Below, in pieces: positions 2,595 to 14,010 of a stretch of 64,000 nucleotides of DNA. The position numbers were made by a program, and so were the translations under genes. Every line of letters starts with the position of its first letter. Position 1 is the first letter of the stretch. Source of the stretch: Sphingobacteriaceae bacterium (GTDB lineage Bacteria > Bacteroidota > Bacteroidia > B-17B0 > Aurantibacillaceae); assembly GCA_046345155.1 (NCBI GenBank), contig JBKDKI010000003.1, positions 2,026-66,025 of the forward strand. Direction: 5' to 3'. The notes under the pieces are model-generated. The model did no database searches. It was not told where the DNA came from and was given only the letters and a program-made list of their open reading frames with translations.

Positions 2595-4505
2595 ATGATA
2601 TTTAAAAGAATAGTAATCATAATTCTGTTAACAATTAGTTCAGTATTGAACGCACAAGATCGTTTGGATGTTATCGACGAAAAATTGAATCAACTGAGCA
2701 AAGACTATCCAGGAATAAATGAGAAAGTTGAACTTTCAATGAATGGTGCCACCGTTCAAGAATATGTAAGAGCAATAGGGCTCAATAATAATCTAAATGT
2801 TAACGTAGATCCTGGCTTGGATATTAAGCTTACAAATACTTTCAGTAAGGTAACAGCAAAGGAAGTATTCTTGTTCCTCTGCAAGCGTTATGATCTCGAT
2901 ATACAATTTGTTGGCCCTATAATCACTTTTGTAAAGTATGTTCAACCATTAGTTGAAAAAAAGATCCAGCTGAAAAAACTTAAGATCGATTATATGAAAT
3001 CCGCCGATCTTTTGAGCTACGATCTTGCAAACGATACTCTAGGAAATGTAGCAAAGGAGATCACTAAACAAAGTGGAAGGAATATCATTTTTTCACCGGA
3101 TTTAAGTAACAAAACTGTTAGTGGCTTTATGCAAAACGCAAGTTTAAACGCTGCCCTTGAAAAACTAGCATTTGCCAATGATATGAAGGTGAGTAAAACT
3201 GAAGATGATTTTTATGTTTTCGAAAAAAGGCAAGTATTTGCTGATCCAAAAAGTAGTAATACAGCTTCTTCGTTCGGGAACCTTGGAAATGAGGGAAGTA
3301 ACTCAAAGAATGGCAAGAGTATCATTGTAAAGGATGGATTAATAACAATGGATGTAACTAATATACCAATGTCTGAAATTGTGAGTGTAGTTTCAAAAGA
3401 ACTAGGAAAAAATTATTTTCTATTCAACGAACTTAGAGGAAATTCAACCTTAAAAGTTGTTGATGCTCCTTATGATGAATTCTTAAAACTATTGTTTAAT
3501 GGAACAGATATTACATTTAAGCAAGATGGAAGCGTGTATCTATTTGGTGATCGTAATTTGGAAGGATTAAGACAAAGTAAGCTAATTACATTACAAAACA
3601 GAACCATAGAAAAATTACTGGATTTTATTCCAGCTGATTTAAAAAAGGGGATTGAGTTAAAAGTGTTTGAAGATTTAAATGGTGTAATCGTTTCTGGTTC
3701 TCAACCACGAATAAATGAGTTGGAGAATTTTTTACGACAATTAGATGTAGTTGTTCCTATGGTTCATATAGAAGTGATCATTGCTGATGTACGAAAAAGT
3801 AATTCGTTATCAGCGGGAATTTCAATGGGTTTGGGAACTGCGGGTACAGGAACAACCGGAGGTACTCTTCTTCCTGATTATAATGTGAGCTTAAACTCTA
3901 AATCCATTAATAATTTGATCAGCGGGATCAACGGATTTGGTATTGTGAATTTAGGAAATGTTACACCAAATTTTTATTTGAACCTAAAAGCGATGGAGTC
4001 TAATGGAATTCTTAAGCTACGTTCAACTCCACAGATAGCAACTTTAAACGGACATGAAGCAAAATTAAGCGTTGGTCAAACTCAATATTACCTTGAAGTA
4101 AATAATAATCTTGTAACTCAGGCTAACACGCAGCAAAACATTTTGCAAACGCAAAATTGGAAAGCAGTAAACGCAGATCTTTCTGTAACCATAGATCCAC
4201 AGGTATCAGGTGATGAACAAATAACAATGACTATTAATGTAAAGCAATCGAGTTTTACCGAGCGTGTTTCTAATACAGCGCCTCCAGGGACAATTAATAG
4301 AGATTTTTCTTCATTAGTACGTGTAAAAAATGGAGAGATGATCATGTTGGGTGGTTTAGAAGAAAATCAGATGAATAATTCTGGCAGTGGATTGCCGTTA
4401 ATATCGCGCATTCCAATCTTGAAATGGATCTTCGGAAATCGTACTAAATCAAAATCAGAGAATAAATTAACCATATTCATAAAACCTACAGTTATATACA
4501 GCTAA
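2595..4505 (+). CDS. gspD: Secretin (GspD/PilQ family)
   Basis: Signal peptide and N-domains. Secretin core: LKAMESNGILKLRSTPQIATLNGHEAKLSVG, VRVKNGEMIMLGGL, SGLPLISRIPILKWIFG, ENKLTIFIKPTVI. Confidence 0.93.
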   Translation: MIFKRIVIIILLTISSVLNAQDRLDVIDEKLNQLSKDYPGINEKVELSMNGATVQEYVRAIGLNNNLNVNVDPGLDIKLTNTFSKVTAKEVFLFLCKRYDLDIQFVGPIITFVKYVQPLVEKKIQLKKLKIDYMKSADLLSYDLANDTLGNVAKEITKQSGRNIIFSPDLSNKTVSGFMQNASLNAALEKLAFANDMKVSKTEDDFYVFEKRQVFADPKSSNTASSFGNLGNEGSNSKNGKSIIVKDGLITMDVTNIPMSEIVSVVSKELGKNYFLFNELRGNSTLKVVDAPYDEFLKLLFNGTDITFKQDGSVYLFGDRNLEGLRQSKLITLQNRTIEKLLDFIPADLKKGIELKVFEDLNGVIVSGSQPRINELENFLRQLDVVVPMVHIEVIIADVRKSNSLSAGISMGLGTAGTGTTGGTLLPDYNVSLNSKSINNLISGINGFGIVNLGNVTPNFYLNLKAMESNGILKLRSTPQIATLNGHEAKLSVGQTQYYLEVNNNLVTQANTQQNILQTQNWKAVNADLSVTIDPQVSGDEQITMTINVKQSSFTERVSNTAPPGTINRDFSSLVRVKNGEMIMLGGLEENQMNNSGSGLPLISRIPILKWIFGNRTKSKSENKLTIFIKPTVIYS

Positions 4506-8043: not shown

Positions 8044-8415
8044 AACTGAGTTCGGTTATGTTTGTCGTCATTGGGTTGCAGCTAAAGTTTGGCAGCCTTG
8101 CGTAGTTAGGTTTTCGAAGCATGAACTTTCTTAATCGATAAAAGATACTTTAAAAATATATATGTTTACTAGCGAGGGCAAATAAAAGTCGCAAATCAAT
8201 CGCTGTTCAGGACAAATTTAGTCCAAATTCAACTGCTTAAGTATAGTTGCCGTTACGTAAAAGTTTCTTGACTAGGGTACAACACAGTGATTTATATTTT
8301 AAATCCTAATTCAAATTAATTCATTAAAATGTACGTAATAAATATCTAACCACTTTTCACTCTTTGTGTGCTTGCATTCTAGTTTATAAATTGTTCACAA
8401 AGTAAGCTCAAGGTT

Positions 8416-8446
8416 TTTGGTATGAAAATGAAACTCATTAAATTTG
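8416..8446 (+). promoter_or_regulatory. Bacteroidota sigmaA promoter (-33 TTTG / -7 TAAATTTG)
   Basis: TTTG 8416-8419, 19-nt spacer, TAAATTTG 8439-8446. Confidence 0.6.
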
Positions 8447-8604
8447 TTTATTGAATTCTAGGCTTATCATTCGAGAAGCCACAGTTAGCAGTTATCTTAA
8501 GTCGTAATTATTGATGCACCACTATGAGATGTTCTTCTCGTGCGCGTATTTACAACATTTAATATTTACCACATTTATTATTTATTAATTTAAAACTGTT
8601 TAAC

Positions 8605-8973
8605 ATGTTTAATAGAAAGCGAAAATGTAAAAATCCTGATTGTCGAATAGAATTCGACCCTATAAATCCAAAGGCCGATTGTCATAACAAGTCGTGCAAT
8701 AACCGTATGAACCATTTAATTAGAATGGCCAAAAAACTGGGCATCAAATCTCAGGAGTTAATTTGGAATTATGTTATAATGCGATCATGTTATGATCAGC
8801 GGAGAATAACTCAACACGGTGATTATTTAGAGGAGTTAGGTGTGAATTTTAATGCATTTCCCCCACCTGTGCCATTTAAACCTGGTGATCCACCATCGGT
8901 TTTGGTGGCAGGCGATCTAGGTCTGGTATTGATCAAAGATAAATTATTCAGAATTGTAAAAAAGACAAACTAA
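8605..8973 (+). CDS. Zn-ribbon-containing hypothetical protein
   Basis: CKNPDC...CHNKSC cysteine pairs. The C-terminal half (LEELGVNFNAF...GDLGLVLIKDKLFRIVKK) recalls a widespread Bacteroidota small Zn-ribbon family; this is from memory and not verified. Confidence 0.7.
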   Translation: MFNRKRKCKNPDCRIEFDPINPKADCHNKSCNNRMNHLIRMAKKLGIKSQELIWNYVIMRSCYDQRRITQHGDYLEELGVNFNAFPPPVPFKPGDPPSVLVAGDLGLVLIKDKLFRIVKKTN

Positions 8974-9479
8974 TGGAATTACCTAAAGGAATACAGCCAA
9001 CACGCGTTAATCTTAACGAGTTGGAGAATCACAAGGAAGAACAACCGGGAGCTACCGAGGGTGGTAAAGGTGAAACGGATTACAACGAGCGTTTAAGAGA
9101 GTTATGGAATAAGGACAAAGTATTTGATCACAAAACTAAGGCTAGTTTCAGAGCAGATCAAACAACTAAGGACGCACCCCCACCATCAGAGACGCCGAAT
9201 TATCGCAACGGTAAGTATATTATTCTAACCATCATTTTGATCATTGTGGTTCTAATTATTTACTATGTTATAAAGCGGCAGAGGAAGGTTCAAGAAGCCA
9301 TGAGATCTAAAATGGAATCGGGGGATGAGCCATATAATTACATTAACTCATTAAGGGCTTCAGATTTTGGTCGCAATATTATGAGTGGGGCAGAGGTGTT
9401 TTTTTATCTGTTAATACTATTTGCTATTGTAAACATGATAGTTAAGGTCGCAAAAACATCTAAGGTTGTATTAGAGTAG
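8973..9479 (+). CDS. Hypothetical membrane protein (2 TM)
   Basis: TAATG overlap with the upstream ORF. Hydrophobic runs YIILTIILIIVVLIIYYVI and VFFYLLILFAIVNMIV. Confidence 0.7.
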   Translation: MELPKGIQPTRVNLNELENHKEEQPGATEGGKGETDYNERLRELWNKDKVFDHKTKASFRADQTTKDAPPPSETPNYRNGKYIILTIILIIVVLIIYYVIKRQRKVQEAMRSKMESGDEPYNYINSLRASDFGRNIMSGAEVFFYLLILFAIVNMIVKVAKTSKVVLE

Positions 9480-9499
9480 AATGACATGAAGCATAAAAT

Positions 9500-9540
9500 A
9501 ATTCTGGTGGTCATTTGTAAAATGGCCACCGGAATTTCTA
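9500..9540 (+). terminator. Intrinsic terminator-like hairpin
   Basis: aattctggtggtcattt-gta-aaatggccaccggaatt; the stem pairs with G-U wobbles on the + strand and lies 20 bp after the 9479 stop. Confidence 0.7.
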
Positions 9541-9687
9541 TTGTCTAAACTTTTGGGAGGAAATATTTACAAACTTAATAAAGTGATATTCATTTTGACT
9601 TGTGCAAGGTTATACATGAAGGGTACGTGGCTTTCTTTTTATGCCGTCACAACCTTTCTAAAAGTAATTACTGGTGATATAAATATA

Positions 9688-9858
9688 TAGCTGATGACCT
9701 TAGCTGAAATATTTCGACTATTGCTAAACGCTGCTGAAACTAGCTTAACATTGCTGAAAAGGGATGAGCATTGCTTACAATTGCTGAACAGCGCTGATGC
9801 AGTAAGCAAAGGTAAGCATGCAATTTTGAAATGGCCTGCTGAATATAGCTTAGCCGAT
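9688..9858. repeat. Array of TGCT(G/T)AA-type motifs in strict 10-bp phase
   Basis: GCT cores at 9703, 9723, 9733, 9743, 9753, 9773, 9783 and 9793, all in one register. Inverted copies (TAAGCA) at 9803 and 9813. Further copies at 9690, 9838 and 9848. Confidence 0.8.
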
Positions 9859-9944
9859 GAAAAAGGGATTATTCAACTTAATAATGAATTGTGCTTTAAT
9901 ATAGGTGTAATGAGGCAATTTTAATTTTTGAAGACATCTTAGAG

Positions 9945-10283
9945 TTAACCTTCAATAACGGTTAGCGCAACTGTTAAATCAATGTTTGCTATGCCACCTA
10001 CCAATATGTATTCGCTAGTTGGATCAATGTTTTCACGGTAGTTAAATTGGGTAATGCTTCCCGTTAAAATAACTTCCTTTTTCAGTAAATTTTGGCTTTC
10101 TGGATCTTTGTGTAATTTCTTAAAGTGAAACTGAACTATTGCTGGTTTATTAGGGTCTGGCTCTATGGCTGCTTCAATAATAAAATTAGCAGTTCTTGGA
10201 TTTATGTTAACCGGTATTGCGAGGGTAAATTCCTTGTTTTTCTTTAGTGACAGTTGTTTTCTTTGAAGTATGAATTTTTCCAT
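9945..10283 (-). CDS. Hypothetical protein (112 aa, predicted beta-rich)
   Basis: Clean ORF 30 bp downstream of the XRE gene on the same strand. Alternating hydrophobic pattern. Confidence 0.65.
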   Translation of the reverse strand: MEKFILQRKQLSLKKNKEFTLAIPVNINPRTANFIIEAAIEPDPNKPAIVQFHFKKLHKDPESQNLLKKEVILTGSITQFNYRENIDPTSEYILVGGIANIDLTVALTVIEG

Positions 10284-10313
10284 TTGCTTTAGAAGCTTGT
10301 TTTTGAGAAATTA

Positions 10314-10529
10314 TTATAGATCCATTAATTCTCCAGATGAAACCTTAAGAGCTCTTGCAACTTCATGCACAAAAAATGCGGTAGGTGTAAAAGTACCTGA
10401 CTCTAATCTACAGATACTGTGTTTGGACTTCCCAATAAGCTTACCTAATGCAACCTGGGTCATCTCTTTTTCTTCTCTCACTTTTGTTATTCTTTTGGCC
10501 AGTTTTTTAGTGAAAACATCTTTTTCCAT
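10314..10529 (-). CDS. XRE/Cro-CI family HTH transcriptional regulator
   Basis: LAKRITKVREEKEMTQVALGKLIGKSKHSICRLESGTFTPT is a classic HTH_3 pattern. Confidence 0.92.
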   Translation of the reverse strand: MEKDVFTKKLAKRITKVREEKEMTQVALGKLIGKSKHSICRLESGTFTPTAFFVHEVARALKVSSGELMDL

Positions 10530-10568
10530 GCATCAATATTACTCATTTTAATAAATTGTTCAAAATTG

Positions 10569-10590
10569 AAGTTGACATATATGTCAACTT
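10569..10590. promoter_or_regulatory. Perfect 22-bp palindrome; candidate XRE operator
   Basis: AAGTTGACATATATGTCAACTT equals its own reverse complement. It lies in the 94-bp divergent gap, just upstream of the -7 box TACATTTG (10604-10611). Confidence 0.75.
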
Positions 10591-10623
10591 TCAGATAGAA
10601 TATGTACATTTGTAAGTAAAAGT

Positions 10624-11289
10624 ATGATACGAGTTTCTGAACATAAACTTTACAGCAATAGAAAATTCACAGGCTTCCTACCAGATCCTCATTTTCCGCC
10701 AGACTTGGAATTGGAAATTAATATCACAGATATTGATTTGGGTGATCCGGATCTGGAAATTGATGGACGTGTATGTTTTACTCACTTGTTACCAGGTGAG
10801 CAAAAAGTGAATATAAATTTTGCCATTAATAAGTTAGACCTTATTAATAATTCATTATTCTTTACAATTAATACAGGTGATTTGGTTTGTAGGGTTTTAA
10901 CGGTCCTTAACTTTAAATTACCATCAGGTATAAATCCTCACATTAAGCATAAGCTTATAGGTTTAACTACTCACTCTAGACAAAACCACTCTAGGCAAAT
11001 TCGCTCTAGCTTAAATTGTAAAGATCCCCTTGATTTTGTTCAAAATTTAAGGGCGCTAAACCCTCAAAATTTCCTTCAACTCATTTCACGAGACTTACAT
11101 GCTCTGGAGGCCACGATTGACGGGGGCTCCCAGCAGGTATTTAAAAAGTGGGCAATTGCCGACCAAATCATCCGTTTGGCGGGTTACAGTTTGATCCCCT
11201 CAAAATATGTGGATTGGGCAGTAGAAAGGTACTTTTTAGAATATGCGAAAACAAAAGAACGATTAGGAATTAATGACATAATAATATGA
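10624..11289 (+). CDS. Hypothetical protein (221 aa)
   Basis: Long ORF behind a -7 promoter box, with ATGA overlap to the next gene. No family recognised. Confidence 0.7.
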   Translation: MIRVSEHKLYSNRKFTGFLPDPHFPPDLELEINITDIDLGDPDLEIDGRVCFTHLLPGEQKVNINFAINKLDLINNSLFFTINTGDLVCRVLTVLNFKLPSGINPHIKHKLIGLTTHSRQNHSRQIRSSLNCKDPLDFVQNLRALNPQNFLQLISRDLHALEATIDGGSQQVFKKWAIADQIIRLAGYSLIPSKYVDWAVERYFLEYAKTKERLGINDIII

Positions 11290-11879
11290 GCTGGAAGTTA
11301 TTTAACGAAATATATGAAAGGAAAAGGGAGGAGTTTATAGCCTTCGATACCACCTTGAGCGAGCATGAAGTTGATCTAAAATCCTATCACAGTTTATTTT
11401 CAAAGGCCTTTGAAGCTTCCTATAACAAATTTGTAAGTGGAAATAGGGCGGCAGTAGATGCCTTAAATAACAATTTTGTTATAGATTTTGAATCATGTGA
11501 AACCCTTGAAGACAATTCCGGTTATGTGGTTTTCTGGGTTCAGCCAATAAATCCAACTTCTTATTACACTAAAATCTCACCCAAAGAAATTCTAATTGAA
11601 GGGATTATGTTTGAGGTTCGCTGGTTTCTTGGAAAGCAAATTGTAAGTGGCGTTGAAAATCCAGTATTCAAATACGAAATATGTGGATGGTTTCATCCCA
11701 ATAAGTGGCGTGGCAGAAATCAATTGAATTATTCTCCTGTTGGGAAAACCACTTTCGCTGGTTTTGATCGAATTGTTAGTGAAAAGTATGAACTAAGTGA
11801 TAGAGGCATCACTCGTGCCATGAATCAGGATTTTGATTGTCATTTTTATAGATGCCTCTCCTTCTACTTTATCAAGTAA
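11286..11879 (+). CDS. Hypothetical protein (197 aa)
   Basis: ATGA-coupled to the upstream ORF. Rich in aromatic residues. No family recognised. Confidence 0.7.
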   Translation: MSWKLFNEIYERKREEFIAFDTTLSEHEVDLKSYHSLFSKAFEASYNKFVSGNRAAVDALNNNFVIDFESCETLEDNSGYVVFWVQPINPTSYYTKISPKEILIEGIMFEVRWFLGKQIVSGVENPVFKYEICGWFHPNKWRGRNQLNYSPVGKTTFAGFDRIVSEKYELSDRGITRAMNQDFDCHFYRCLSFYFIK

Positions 11880-11906
11880 GCTAGAAGAATTTACAAGGGA
11901 TTTAAA

Positions 11907-12245
11907 ATGAAAGAAACAAAGTATAATAGCAAAGAAATTGAAGATAAGTATAATCTTATTTCTATTAATGAGCTTATGACTTTGTTGGGTTATACAGATA
12001 AACGATCAGTTAGGAATTGGTGTGAAAAGAAGCGCATACCGATTATAGAACTGGGAAAAAACGAATACGTCAATAGAACGAACATTACGGAGTTGATCCA
12101 AAGCCAGCTACCTATAAAGGGTAGCAGACCACCAGCTGACAGAGATACACCGGGTTCAGGTTCTAATACGGAAGTGAAATATGTTCCTGAAAGCAAAATC
12201 GTAGCCAAATATTTAGCCAAGTATGAGAGAAAGAACAAAACTTAG
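11907..12245 (+). CDS. Excisionase-like (MerR/HTH_17-type) DNA-binding protein
   Basis: LISINELMTLLGYTDKRSVRNWCEKKRIP winged-HTH pattern. Overlaps the integrase start by 23 nt. Confidence 0.7.
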   Translation: MKETKYNSKEIEDKYNLISINELMTLLGYTDKRSVRNWCEKKRIPIIELGKNEYVNRTNITELIQSQLPIKGSRPPADRDTPGSGSNTEVKYVPESKIVAKYLAKYERKNKT

Positions 12246-13545
12246 TTTGCCGAAAAAACAGCGGCCAAAGGGCTTGTTCTTGTATTGTAATGGTTGTAAG
12301 CACTACTATTCCAATGATAAAGAAGGTATTTGTAGATGTGGTAACTTGGTATATAAGGCTCGAATCCATGTGCCCGGTACCAATCATGGTATTAAAATAA
12401 AAGTCTTTGGCACAAAAATCTTTCGGGATGTGCTCAATCAGTTTTACGAATTCAAAGAGAAGCTGGAGTCAAACTGCTATCAGAGCGTACCCATTAAAAG
12501 AAATGAAAATACCCCGATCAGACTAATTGATTGCTTTGCTTATTACATGGGTTATCTCAATAATGTAGATGTTCCAAAGCACAAACAAAAAAACCGTGAT
12601 AAAAAGTATATCGCCAAATACGATTTGCTTTTTGAGCAGTACAAAGATGCACTTGAATTAAACGGAGTAAACTGTGAAATATTAAAGTTCAAAGAGGTGA
12701 ATGATGATATGGTTGGTTTTGTACATGAGTATTTTTTAAAAAACAAAGCTCTTGCCAATAAAACTTACAATAATAATATGGCATTGCTTAGTGCGTTTAC
12801 CTCACATGTGATCAATAAATTTAAGTTAGAGTACCAAAACCCCTTTCTTGGTATTCCTGAAATGATTGTTACACCTAAGGTAAAGGCGATAGGAGAAAGT
12901 GAATTCTCAAAACTGCTAAATTTAATTACTCCGGAAAATGGAATCCAATTAAAAACACTACGCTCACGAAAAAATGTCAAAAAAACCAATCACTATAAGC
13001 CTTGGTTGCGATTTGCTTTTAAACTCGGTTTATATACTGGAGGAAGAAGCGAGGATATTGTAGAGTTAAAATGGTCAAGCATCCGTCTTCAGGAAGATGG
13101 CAAATTTGATACACTTGAAACCATAGACCATAAAATTGACAGTGCGAATAGTCACAGGATAAGTGAAACAGATCGCTTAACAAAATTCTTTGCCATTACA
13201 AAGGAACTAGGTGATCTTTTAATGGAGATGGGTTATGAAAAATATAAAAAGACAGACAAATATATATTAGCTCCTGAGGATGGATTAAAGCGATCGAACG
13301 TTGCCGGAATTATCAGCAGGTCATTCTCACATTATTATGCTCAGTTAAATACCGGAAAAGTTATTACGTTTAGGAATTTGAGAAAAACATTTATGACAAG
13401 TGCATATAAAGAATTTGGTTTAGCTTCAACGGCGCTTACCAATCATAAGAATCCATCAATGACAAATAAACATTATTATGATAAAGAAGTAACGCGAGAT
13501 GATGCGAAAGAAAATTTTTCGGTCTTCAAAAAGAAAATTATTTAA
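12223..13545 (+). CDS. Tyrosine recombinase/integrase
   Basis: SAM-like core (LANKTYNNNMALLSAF) and catalytic R (LYTGGRSEDIVELKW). Box II variant TFRNLRKTF, then LTNHKNPSMTNKHYY (H...Y). Ends 100 bp from the ssrA 3' end. Confidence 0.93.
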   Translation: MRERTKLSLPKKQRPKGLFLYCNGCKHYYSNDKEGICRCGNLVYKARIHVPGTNHGIKIKVFGTKIFRDVLNQFYEFKEKLESNCYQSVPIKRNENTPIRLIDCFAYYMGYLNNVDVPKHKQKNRDKKYIAKYDLLFEQYKDALELNGVNCEILKFKEVNDDMVGFVHEYFLKNKALANKTYNNNMALLSAFTSHVINKFKLEYQNPFLGIPEMIVTPKVKAIGESEFSKLLNLITPENGIQLKTLRSRKNVKKTNHYKPWLRFAFKLGLYTGGRSEDIVELKWSSIRLQEDGKFDTLETIDHKIDSANSHRISETDRLTKFFAITKELGDLLMEMGYEKYKKTDKYILAPEDGLKRSNVAGIISRSFSHYYAQLNTGKVITFRNLRKTFMTSAYKEFGLASTALTNHKNPSMTNKHYYDKEVTRDDAKENFSVFKKKII

Positions 13546-13548
13546 CAA

Positions 13549-13574
13549 ATTTCCGTACTCCATTTCCGTACTCC
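13549..13574. repeat. 13-bp tandem direct repeat ATTTCCGTACTCC x2 (candidate integrase arm sites)
   Basis: Exact copies at 13549-13561 and 13562-13574, between the integrase stop and ssrA. Confidence 0.75.
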
Positions 13575-13603
13575 AAGGCAAAAAATGAAACTCTCAAAAA
13601 TGA

Positions 13604-13638
13604 AAAAACCCCTGATAGCAAGGCTTTCAGGGGTTTTT
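13604..13638. terminator. Inverted repeat downstream of ssrA (terminator and/or att-associated symmetry element)
   Basis: aaaaacccctga-tagcaaggctt-tcaggggttttt, 7 bp from the tmRNA 3' end, with A/T tracts on both sides. Confidence 0.65.
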
Positions 13639-13645
13639 AGTTGAG

Positions 13646-14010
13646 TGGACCCGGAGAGATTCGAACTCTCGTCCAAATAAGGAAAAAATAAGCTTTCTAC
13701 ACGTTTAGTATTAACTTGATTTTCGATCGAAGCCAGGCGTTAATTCATACCAAACTTCAACTTAGTTACTTGTATTGTTTTTGCACGTAACACTTCAAAA
13801 ACAAACTGCACATTTATGATGCATCATCCAAGGCGCGGAGCAGTTTAGCTCCCTGGGATGCAAAGGTTGCTAAATCCTAGATTAAGCAGCCATAGCGTAA
13901 GAATTCTCTTCGCCAAATAAAGTTTTGAAAGTTCAGTTTAAAGAGCTCGTCTTACAACGCTCTACATGCTTACCTATTTGATGCGCTTACTGTCAAAACC
14001 GGTCGGACCC
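13646..14010 (-). ncRNA. ssrA: tmRNA
   Basis: 5' end GGGUCCGACCGGUUUUGACAG. 3' T-arm/acceptor GACGAGAGUUCGAAUCUCUCCGGGUCCA with G3-U70 Ala determinant. Tag ORF 13914-13882 encodes (A)GEENSYAMAA*. Confidence 0.97.

Follow-up and report, generated by a model that had tools for sequence, protein, structure and literature searches.

Binding arrays of recombination directionality factors (RDFs) have been described for lambda (the Xis sites X1-X1.5-X2), P2 (Cox boxes), 186 (Apl sites) and L5 (gp36 sites), and the known examples hold 3–7 sites that fall within the element, with the core on one side and the arm sites of Int on the other. Repeat centromeres with ribbon-helix-helix adaptors are found in R1 (parC), pSK41 (parC), TP228 (parH) and pSM19035 (the omega heptads), with periods of 7, 8, 11 or 20 bp, not exactly 10, and cooperative coating of these repeats leads to a superhelical nucleoprotein scaffold. 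Cis-acting sites can also be located within coding sequence, as the ori iterons of lambda in gene O, the pac hexamers of P1 in pacA and parS in spo0J. The cos region of the 936-type phages contains direct repeats plus putative terminase binding sites (PMC6105707), and the RDF protein RdfS is an oligomeric wHTH protein without any recognisable motif (PMC11963761).

The locus described here is a stretch of ~160 bp beside a small integrated island, in which about 12 copies of a short word are spaced by one helical turn. It is located in a window of 64 kb (the whole stretch of DNA that was analysed, 64,000 nucleotides), and on sequence evidence it is confined to one narrow lineage of uncultured freshwater bacteria. 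The best reading of the locus, which we hold tentatively, is that of a cooperative protein-docking array that overlaps a small ORF.

Organization of the array

The following features make up the array and the ORF that threads it.

9701..9800, plus strand: main array, ten 10-bp slots of which eight carry a head-to-tail (T)TGCT(G/T/A)A core
9801..9820, minus strand: the inverted copy GTAAGCA, present twice at a distance of 10 bp and in the helical phase of the direct copies
9836..9855, plus strand: two further direct copies, CTGCTGAATA and TAGCTTAGCC, 10 bp apart and 5 bp off the main register
9768..9821, no strand: imperfect nested inverted repeat, seen as a hairpin in both RNA folds
9694..9924, plus strand: 76-codon ORF that runs through the whole array

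The GCT of the eight filled slots starts at 9703, 9723, 9733, 9743, 9753, 9773, 9783 and 9793, all in a single 10-bp register, and of the two unfilled slots 9713 is empty (TTCGAC) and 9763 holds a degenerate copy (GATGAG). The inverted core TAAGCA is found at 9803 and 9813, in the register of the main array, and direct copies 9773 and 9783 pair with the inverted copies 9813 and 9803 in the nested repeat. GCTGAA at 9838 and GCTTAG at 9848 are both 5 bp out of register with the main array, and are therefore located on the opposite face of the helix. An earlier note on this DNA had listed eight GCT-cored copies in a 10-bp register, two inverted copies and two more direct ones, and the positions of all of them were confirmed. 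Its motif, TGCT(G/T)AA, describes repeats that are real, but the full 7-mer is present only four times (9732, 9752, 9782 and 9837) and the conserved core of the units is GCTGA.

When GCT was counted in ten consecutive slots from each start, at periods of 7 to 14 and on both strands, the main array filled eight of the ten slots and the maximum elsewhere in the 64-kb window was four, which bears out the 10-bp period proposed earlier. The 10-bp phasing of A has its window-wide maximum at 9684. The phasing of AA dinucleotides at 10 bp is strongest in the window at 13242–13360, in the 3' part of the integrase gene, where no repeated motif is visible. In the ten units of 9701–9800 the matches to the consensus at each unit position are 6, 6, 9, 8, 9, 7, 10, 6, 4 and 6, giving 43 of 50 in the core versus 28 of 50 in the spacers, which are near random. 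A perfect 10-mer array degraded uniformly in simulations down to the observed overall similarity showed a core-spacer contrast this large in 0.5% of the cases (p about 0.005). Tandem Repeats Finder reported no repeat for the array, because only the core is repeated and the spacers differ. In a simple tandem repeat the whole unit should be repeated with even similarity, and here the similarity is limited to the 5-bp core; the array is no ordinary decayed minisatellite, and the phased feature is real and statistically robust. Replication slippage is not the expected source of inverted copies that keep the phase, while mixed-orientation binding arrays do show such phasing.

The open reading frame across the array

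As 10 is no multiple of 3, successive copies of the array are read in all three phases by ORF 9694–9924. GCTGAA read from its T gives the stop codon TGA, and the slots in that phase, 9713, 9743 and 9773, carry TTCGAC, GCTTAA and GCTTAC respectively, so that an in-frame TGA is avoided, with G or A at that position in seven of the seven slots of the other two phases. When the units were permuted, some plus frame was open in 0.8% of the trials with ten slots and in 0.08% with seventeen slots, and a minus frame in 31–44%. The plus frame of 9694–9924 looks maintained by selection. The minus-strand ORF 9639–9809, in contrast, was rejected as spurious, since its coding score is like that of spurious frames and such frames are open in 31–44% of the permutations.

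The earlier note had considered that a translated ORF at 9694–9924 might cause the period. The ORF does not explain it, even if its frame seems to have been maintained. The 76 residues were recoded synonymously by back-translation with the codon usage of the window, and none of 20,000 recodings reached eight GCT in register, the best having seven, once. Leu-Leu is written TTGCT(G/A) three times in the ORF, compared to 4 of 155 Leu-Leu pairs in the genes of the window. The recodings and the rare codon pair together indicate that the encoded protein fails to explain the motif. Motif and open frame both look selected, and the DNA is probably doubly constrained.

The codon (0.093) and hexamer (0.096) scores of ORF 9694–9924 are like those of other island genes and above those of 97% of spurious open stretches, and the ORF is predicted by gene callers in every copy. 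A word-index search of 5.8 billion proteins with the 76-aa product gave only one copy, of 93% identity, and an exhaustive HMMER search of 1.84 billion representatives gave its own fragment and a 1,355-aa ankyrin-repeat protein, and nothing else. The latter (40 repeats, 24% identity per repeat) was rejected as a homologue, as its significance comes from ~20 repeats of the same weak match and the protein also matches many unrelated Pfam families; the 76-aa ORF gave no match to the Ank models even at E = 10. An AlphaFold single-sequence model of the product is moderately ordered (pLDDT 62), and a Foldseek search with this model gave no fold match. As in a protein-coding gene, the frame is open beyond chance and has host-like coding statistics, while homologues and purifying selection were not seen: the known copies have at least 93% identity and, in a very small sample, 1 synonymous to 5 non-synonymous changes. 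A 49-codon ORF at 9541–9690 is in frame with 9694–9924 and separated from it by a single TAG (9688–9690), which is kept in L001 and L006; this upstream part scores as non-coding and is 8% diverged from L006.

Variation among copies

In public data the array is known only in near-identical copies from freshwater metagenomes. Four of these (L001, L002, L004 and L005) show just two differences from the window, at 9831 and 9875, where the window has A and nearly all metagenome copies have T, both changes being non-synonymous in the 76-aa ORF (K46N and Q61L). Most of the examined runs share these changes, indicating that the window carries minority alleles, and the array motif is the same in all of them. 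L006, the copy with the greatest divergence (about 4.7% over the left flank), keeps seven of the eight direct copies. In ORF 9694–9924 it has six changes, 1 synonymous and 5 non-synonymous, compared to 67 synonymous and 38 non-synonymous in five neighbouring genes pooled (Fisher p = 0.03). Two of the six, one of them synonymous, convert copy 9743 from GCTTAAC to GTTTATC, and another is located in a spacer. The divergence from L006 is 2.6% in the ORF versus 7.0% in the adjacent intergenic region 9480–9693, a difference that is only marginally significant, and other 200-bp windows of the flank are as conserved as the ORF region.

Protein searches and contig scans gave no relative diverged by more than ~5% that carries the array, and with so few copies, constraint on motif or protein is not apparent. 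Searches with the 76-aa, 112-aa and 122-aa products gave near-identical copies only, the 5.1-kb island had no BLAST match in phage and plasmid collections, and protein-pattern scans of viral, genome and metagenome contigs gave no relatives. No relatives were found in phage or viral collections.

Neighbouring genes and regulatory signals

The genes and signals around the array, from left to right, are as follows.

8605–8973, plus strand: 122-aa gene for a zinc-ribbon-like product with a cysteine-rich N-terminus
8973–9479, plus strand: 168-aa gene with two hydrophobic segments
9500–9536, plus strand: terminator-like hairpin (17-bp stem) at the end of the upstream 122-aa/168-aa unit
9945–10283, minus strand: 112-aa orphan gene, convergent, first gene of the island proper
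10314–10529, minus strand: XRE HTH gene
10569–10590, no strand: perfect 22-bp palindrome AAGTTGACATATATGTCAACTT, likely XRE operator
10624–11879, plus strand: two orphan genes (221 aa and 197 aa)
11907–12245, plus strand: HTH_17-like, xis-like ORF
12223–13545, plus strand: tyrosine integrase
13645–14010, minus strand: tmRNA gene

The array sits in a 400-bp gap between the convergent 3' ends of the 168-aa gene (which ends at 9479) and the 112-aa gene (which ends at 9945). It had earlier been placed between convergent transcription units and judged unlikely to be a promoter operator, and both views hold, the XRE gene having its own candidate operator at 10569–10590. This palindrome overlies a near-consensus promoter, TTGACA-18-TAGAAT (10572–10601), between the divergent XRE and 221-aa genes, and no GCTGAA is found at it. 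The suggestion that XRE might spread from its operator into the array had to be abandoned, as the candidate operator is a separate palindrome 700 bp away without GCTGA. Promoter-like matches inside the array reach only 9 of 12 positions and are fewer than in shuffled sequences.

The neighbouring genes are all orphans except the XRE gene, the HTH_17-like ORF and the integrase, which, the xis-like ORF only weakly, were the only ones of ten neighbouring proteins to be recognised with Pfam, PHROGs, NCBIfam and PADLOC. The HTH_17-like match of ORF 11907–12245 (E = 2.3e-4) is below the Pfam cut-off, and the ORF has a weak match to PHROG excisionase family 66. No ParA, ParM, TubZ, Rep, helicase, primase, terminase or relaxase was recognised among the ten proteins with these four profile libraries, in agreement with the earlier note, which had seen neither ParA nor Rep. 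The 122-aa, 168-aa and 76-aa genes, whose codon usage is atypical too, may form a module. To the left of it, 8044–8604 is a stretch of 561 bp without a called gene, which holds the 12-mer AAAATGAAACTC at 8425.

Ends of the island

Where the island begins was judged from a mosaic relative (L007), which encodes a 112-aa protein of 85% identity and is, together with a contig of run X1, the only diverged relative of the island.

9917..9939, no strand: putative left junction of the minimal int-xis island, where similarity to a diverged variant ends leftward

The xis and int genes of L007 and the window are near-identical, with a handful of differences, none of them in int (covered up to 12629), and the 112-aa, 221-aa and 197-aa genes show up to 27% divergence between island variants. 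Compared with 10084–11700 of the window, the variants L006 and L007 show mosaic divergence, with 0–4% in xis and int and 1–7% in the XRE promoter region. The similarity of L007 to the window stops at 9917, 59 bp to the right of the last array copy, and the 37 bases beyond this point, which are all that is visible, are unrelated to the window and contain TTTAGTTGAG. This sequence, located 36 nt beyond 9917 and in the stretch 2700–2749 of L007, is identical to 13636–13645, which abuts the 3' end of the tmRNA gene. In run X1, a contig of 1,110 nt has the foreign flank of L007 joined to the island at 9939, and its depth is that of the window-type contigs. Within the 37 visible bases of L007 and the X1 contig the array is absent at the corresponding position of the related island. 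The earlier note had made its reading depend on related islands having the array, and this is true of the near-identical copies, which carry it, but not of the L007-type variant, which, as far as visible, does not have it at the same position. A left copy of TTTAGTTGAG was not found in the island of the window, also when longer versions were searched and mismatches allowed.

At the other end, the contigs L203 and L204 have an integrase identical to that of the window, but their match ends at 13649, beyond which (about 3570–3600) they continue, via sequence like the 3' end of tmRNA, into a TPR gene and a FabA/ketosynthase cluster. We infer a minimal island of ~3.7 kb, roughly 9880–13649 in the L007-type variant, with TTTAGTTGAG(TGGA) as the att core. 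Two related copies of the island appear to have swapped flanks through the near-identical int-xis segment. The flanks of L203, L204 and L007 suggest two island copies per genome or population. The alternative left flank of the L007 type gave no match in a scan of metagenome collections, and neither an empty site nor a circle junction was found in eight metagenome runs.

Since the DNA of L007 is unrelated from 9917 leftward, the array is probably outside the minimal int-xis unit, and it may belong to the flanking integrase-less module of the 122-aa, 168-aa and 76-aa genes; no repeats that bound a putative left mini-element or module were found. Two tandem copies of ATTTCCGTACTCC are located at 13549–13574, between the stop codon of the integrase gene and the tmRNA terminator hairpin (13604–13638). 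The window has no further copy, and the two are candidates for the arm-type sites of the integrase, or for xis sites, in this island. The GCTGA motif is not found at the island's own ends, and as these have other arm repeats (the two copies of ATTTCCGTACTCC), the array has no evident tie to the integrase or xis. The 12-mer AAAATGAAACTC, found at 8425 and again at 13582 near the right end of the island, was rejected as an att copy, the match being at about chance level.

Alternative explanations

In the main rival explanation, the phased motif could be a functionless fossil in a lineage-restricted gene for the 76-aa protein, born from an amplified 10-bp tandem repeat. Raw material for such a birth exists, as perfect 10-bp GCT(A/G/T)AA tandem arrays are common in genomes and phages, and a plus frame open in only 0.08–0.8% of the unit permutations, an ORF called in every copy, codon and hexamer scores like those of island genes and a moderately ordered model (pLDDT 62) all speak for a young gene. 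We nevertheless consider this origin rather unlikely: the core-spacer contrast is unexpected under uniform decay (p about 0.005) and also under coding selection, whose target positions would differ between the three phases, no explanation is given for the inverted copies, the ratio of 1 synonymous to 5 non-synonymous changes against L006 differs from the 67 to 38 of the neighbours (Fisher p = 0.03), and neither a fold match nor a homologue beyond near-identical copies was found in 5.8 and 1.84 billion proteins. A decayed 10-bp minisatellite without present function, in which the open frame is a coincidence, is improbable, since it needs three coincidences, the open frame (p = 0.0008–0.008), the core-spacer contrast (p = 0.005) and inverted copies that are in phase; it would agree with the widespread occurrence of simple 10-bp tandem repeats with the same core, with searches that found no partner protein or homologues, and with the lack of strong constraint relative to the neighbourhood overall.

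The array might instead be a parC/parS-like centromere or an iteron origin, to which an orphan protein of the island binds so that the island, once excised, persists as a plasmid-like circle. Phased direct and inverted short repeats resemble the centromeres bound by ribbon-helix-helix proteins, and the four orphan genes of the island could hide a new binder. Of the partition centromere proposed in the earlier note the regular phased repeats stand, while genes for a partition NTPase or adaptor (ParA, ParM and TubZ among those searched for) and an overlap with a promoter were not found. For the iteron origin, no AT-rich unwinding region, DnaA box or Rep gene was recognised, an orphan gene being a possible Rep: the array is less AT-rich (53–63% A+T) than its flanks (73–83%), and 9000–10500 has no DnaA box with at most one mismatch. 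Nor does the array fall within the part common to the window and the L007-type island, in which int and xis are the same and a left core copy is present; the island of the window has no left copy of TTTAGTTGAG, and the eight metagenome runs gave no circle junction or empty site, all of which makes a maintenance site very improbable. A signal acting at the RNA level, that is a protein-binding repeat or structure in the convergent 3' regions, for example with 9768–9821 as the terminator of the XRE/112-aa operon, would be in line with the nested hairpin, which was found in the folds of both strands and is followed on the minus strand by UCAUCCCUUUUC. The fold energies are, however, unexceptional (z = -0.33 and -0.92), the sole Rfam match was the tmRNA, with none at the array, and an exact period of 10 nt points to the DNA helix, so that such a signal can hardly be expected here.

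Proposed explanation

Of the readings considered, the general idea of the earlier note fits best, namely a cooperative nucleoprotein site. As a docking array, the eight head-to-tail GCTGA cores, the two inverted copies on the same face and the two copies on the opposite face would form a cis-acting DNA platform, on which a small DNA-binding protein might polymerise cooperatively and bend or coat about 160 bp. The likeliest role is an architectural one, such as controlling recombination or the junction region, or insulating the units from each other, and this is favoured over partition or replication because the array is located between terminated convergent units and beside the island junction. 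The G-to-T variants of the motif fall where an in-frame TGA is avoided, which would make platform and ORF doubly constrained. The analysis shows the phasing, the core-spacer contrast, a motif independent of the encoded protein and a frame that is open beyond chance, while the binding of a protein, the binder and the process served are inferences. That the locus is dual-coded, the DNA of a translated 76-aa ORF being the 12-site array, with motif variants adjusted in each codon phase so that the frame stays open, and its product perhaps the adaptor, in an unrecognised maintenance or recombination-control module of the tmRNA island, is a long shot.

Should the array be a docking site, it would open a way to the DNA-binding protein and the control logic of a very small integrative island in which almost every gene is an orphan, and would provide a clear example of DNA that obeys a 10-bp helical code and a 3-bp reading frame at once. 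Should it be a young gene that arose as a repeat decayed, it would be no more than an ordinary curiosity.

Comparison with known systems

An exact scan of viral and genome collections for four GCTDAA at 10 bp gave about 190 loci, nearly all of them perfect 10-bp tandem repeats without relation to the array. In Lactococcus skunaviruses (L010, 68–127, and about 25 other viral loci), tandem arrays of 4–16 copies of GCTAAATCTT are located just inside the left cos end, at a distance of 50–110 nt and on the upstream side of terS. The cos repeats of the 936-type phages (Skunavirus) are like the array in their 10-bp period and GCTAAA core, but they are near-perfect copies of a whole 10-mer beside cos and the terminase genes, whereas the array has variable spacers and no packaging genes: neither the island nor the DNA around it has genes for a terminase or for structural proteins. 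Five MAG loci from different phyla (L082, L107, L161, L178 and L196) have a conserved module of ATGTCACAAATATGTCACAGATTTT, with two TGTCACA, followed by four (GCTTAA N4), located 30–70 nt from the 3' end of a tRNA gene or a tRNA fragment. In L178 it is found in a 1.5-kb element that has Fic and HTH genes, lacks an integrase and is flanked by tRNA repeats of 51 nt; the module is 65 nt inward of the right-hand one. The TGTCACA/GCTTAA module may be an undescribed att-arm module. It shares with the array the phased hexamers, the variable spacers and a position next to an att-type junction, and differs in having no more than four copies, each of them GCTTAA, and a second repeat that goes with them; a sequence relation to the array is not evident. 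Arrays of phased hexamers separated by variable spacers do occur as end modules of integrative elements, but the likeness of the array to the skunavirus and tRNA modules is analogy only, because the search imposed the shared core.

As would be the case for the array, lambda O, P1 pacA and spo0J have a repeated protein-binding site that shares its DNA with an open reading frame, but there the binder is known, being encoded by the gene itself or by one next to it, and replication, packaging or partition can be recognised as the system served, whereas nothing is recognisable at the array. The repeat centromeres resemble it in their number of short repeats, at least ten, and in that some have them in either orientation, and differ in overlapping the promoter of an adjacent par operon with an NTPase, neither of which is present here. 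From the RDF arrays it differs in having ~12 sites, in being seemingly outside the minimal island, and in that the island ends have a different repeat. As in the filament sites of RDF proteins, there are at least three head-to-tail repeats at 10–11 bp. In both cases short head-to-tail repeats follow each other at about one helical turn, an arrangement on which the filament of a small winged-helix RDF protein bends the DNA, and the array, too, has an element junction within about 60–200 bp and an HTH_17-type, xis-like gene in its surroundings.
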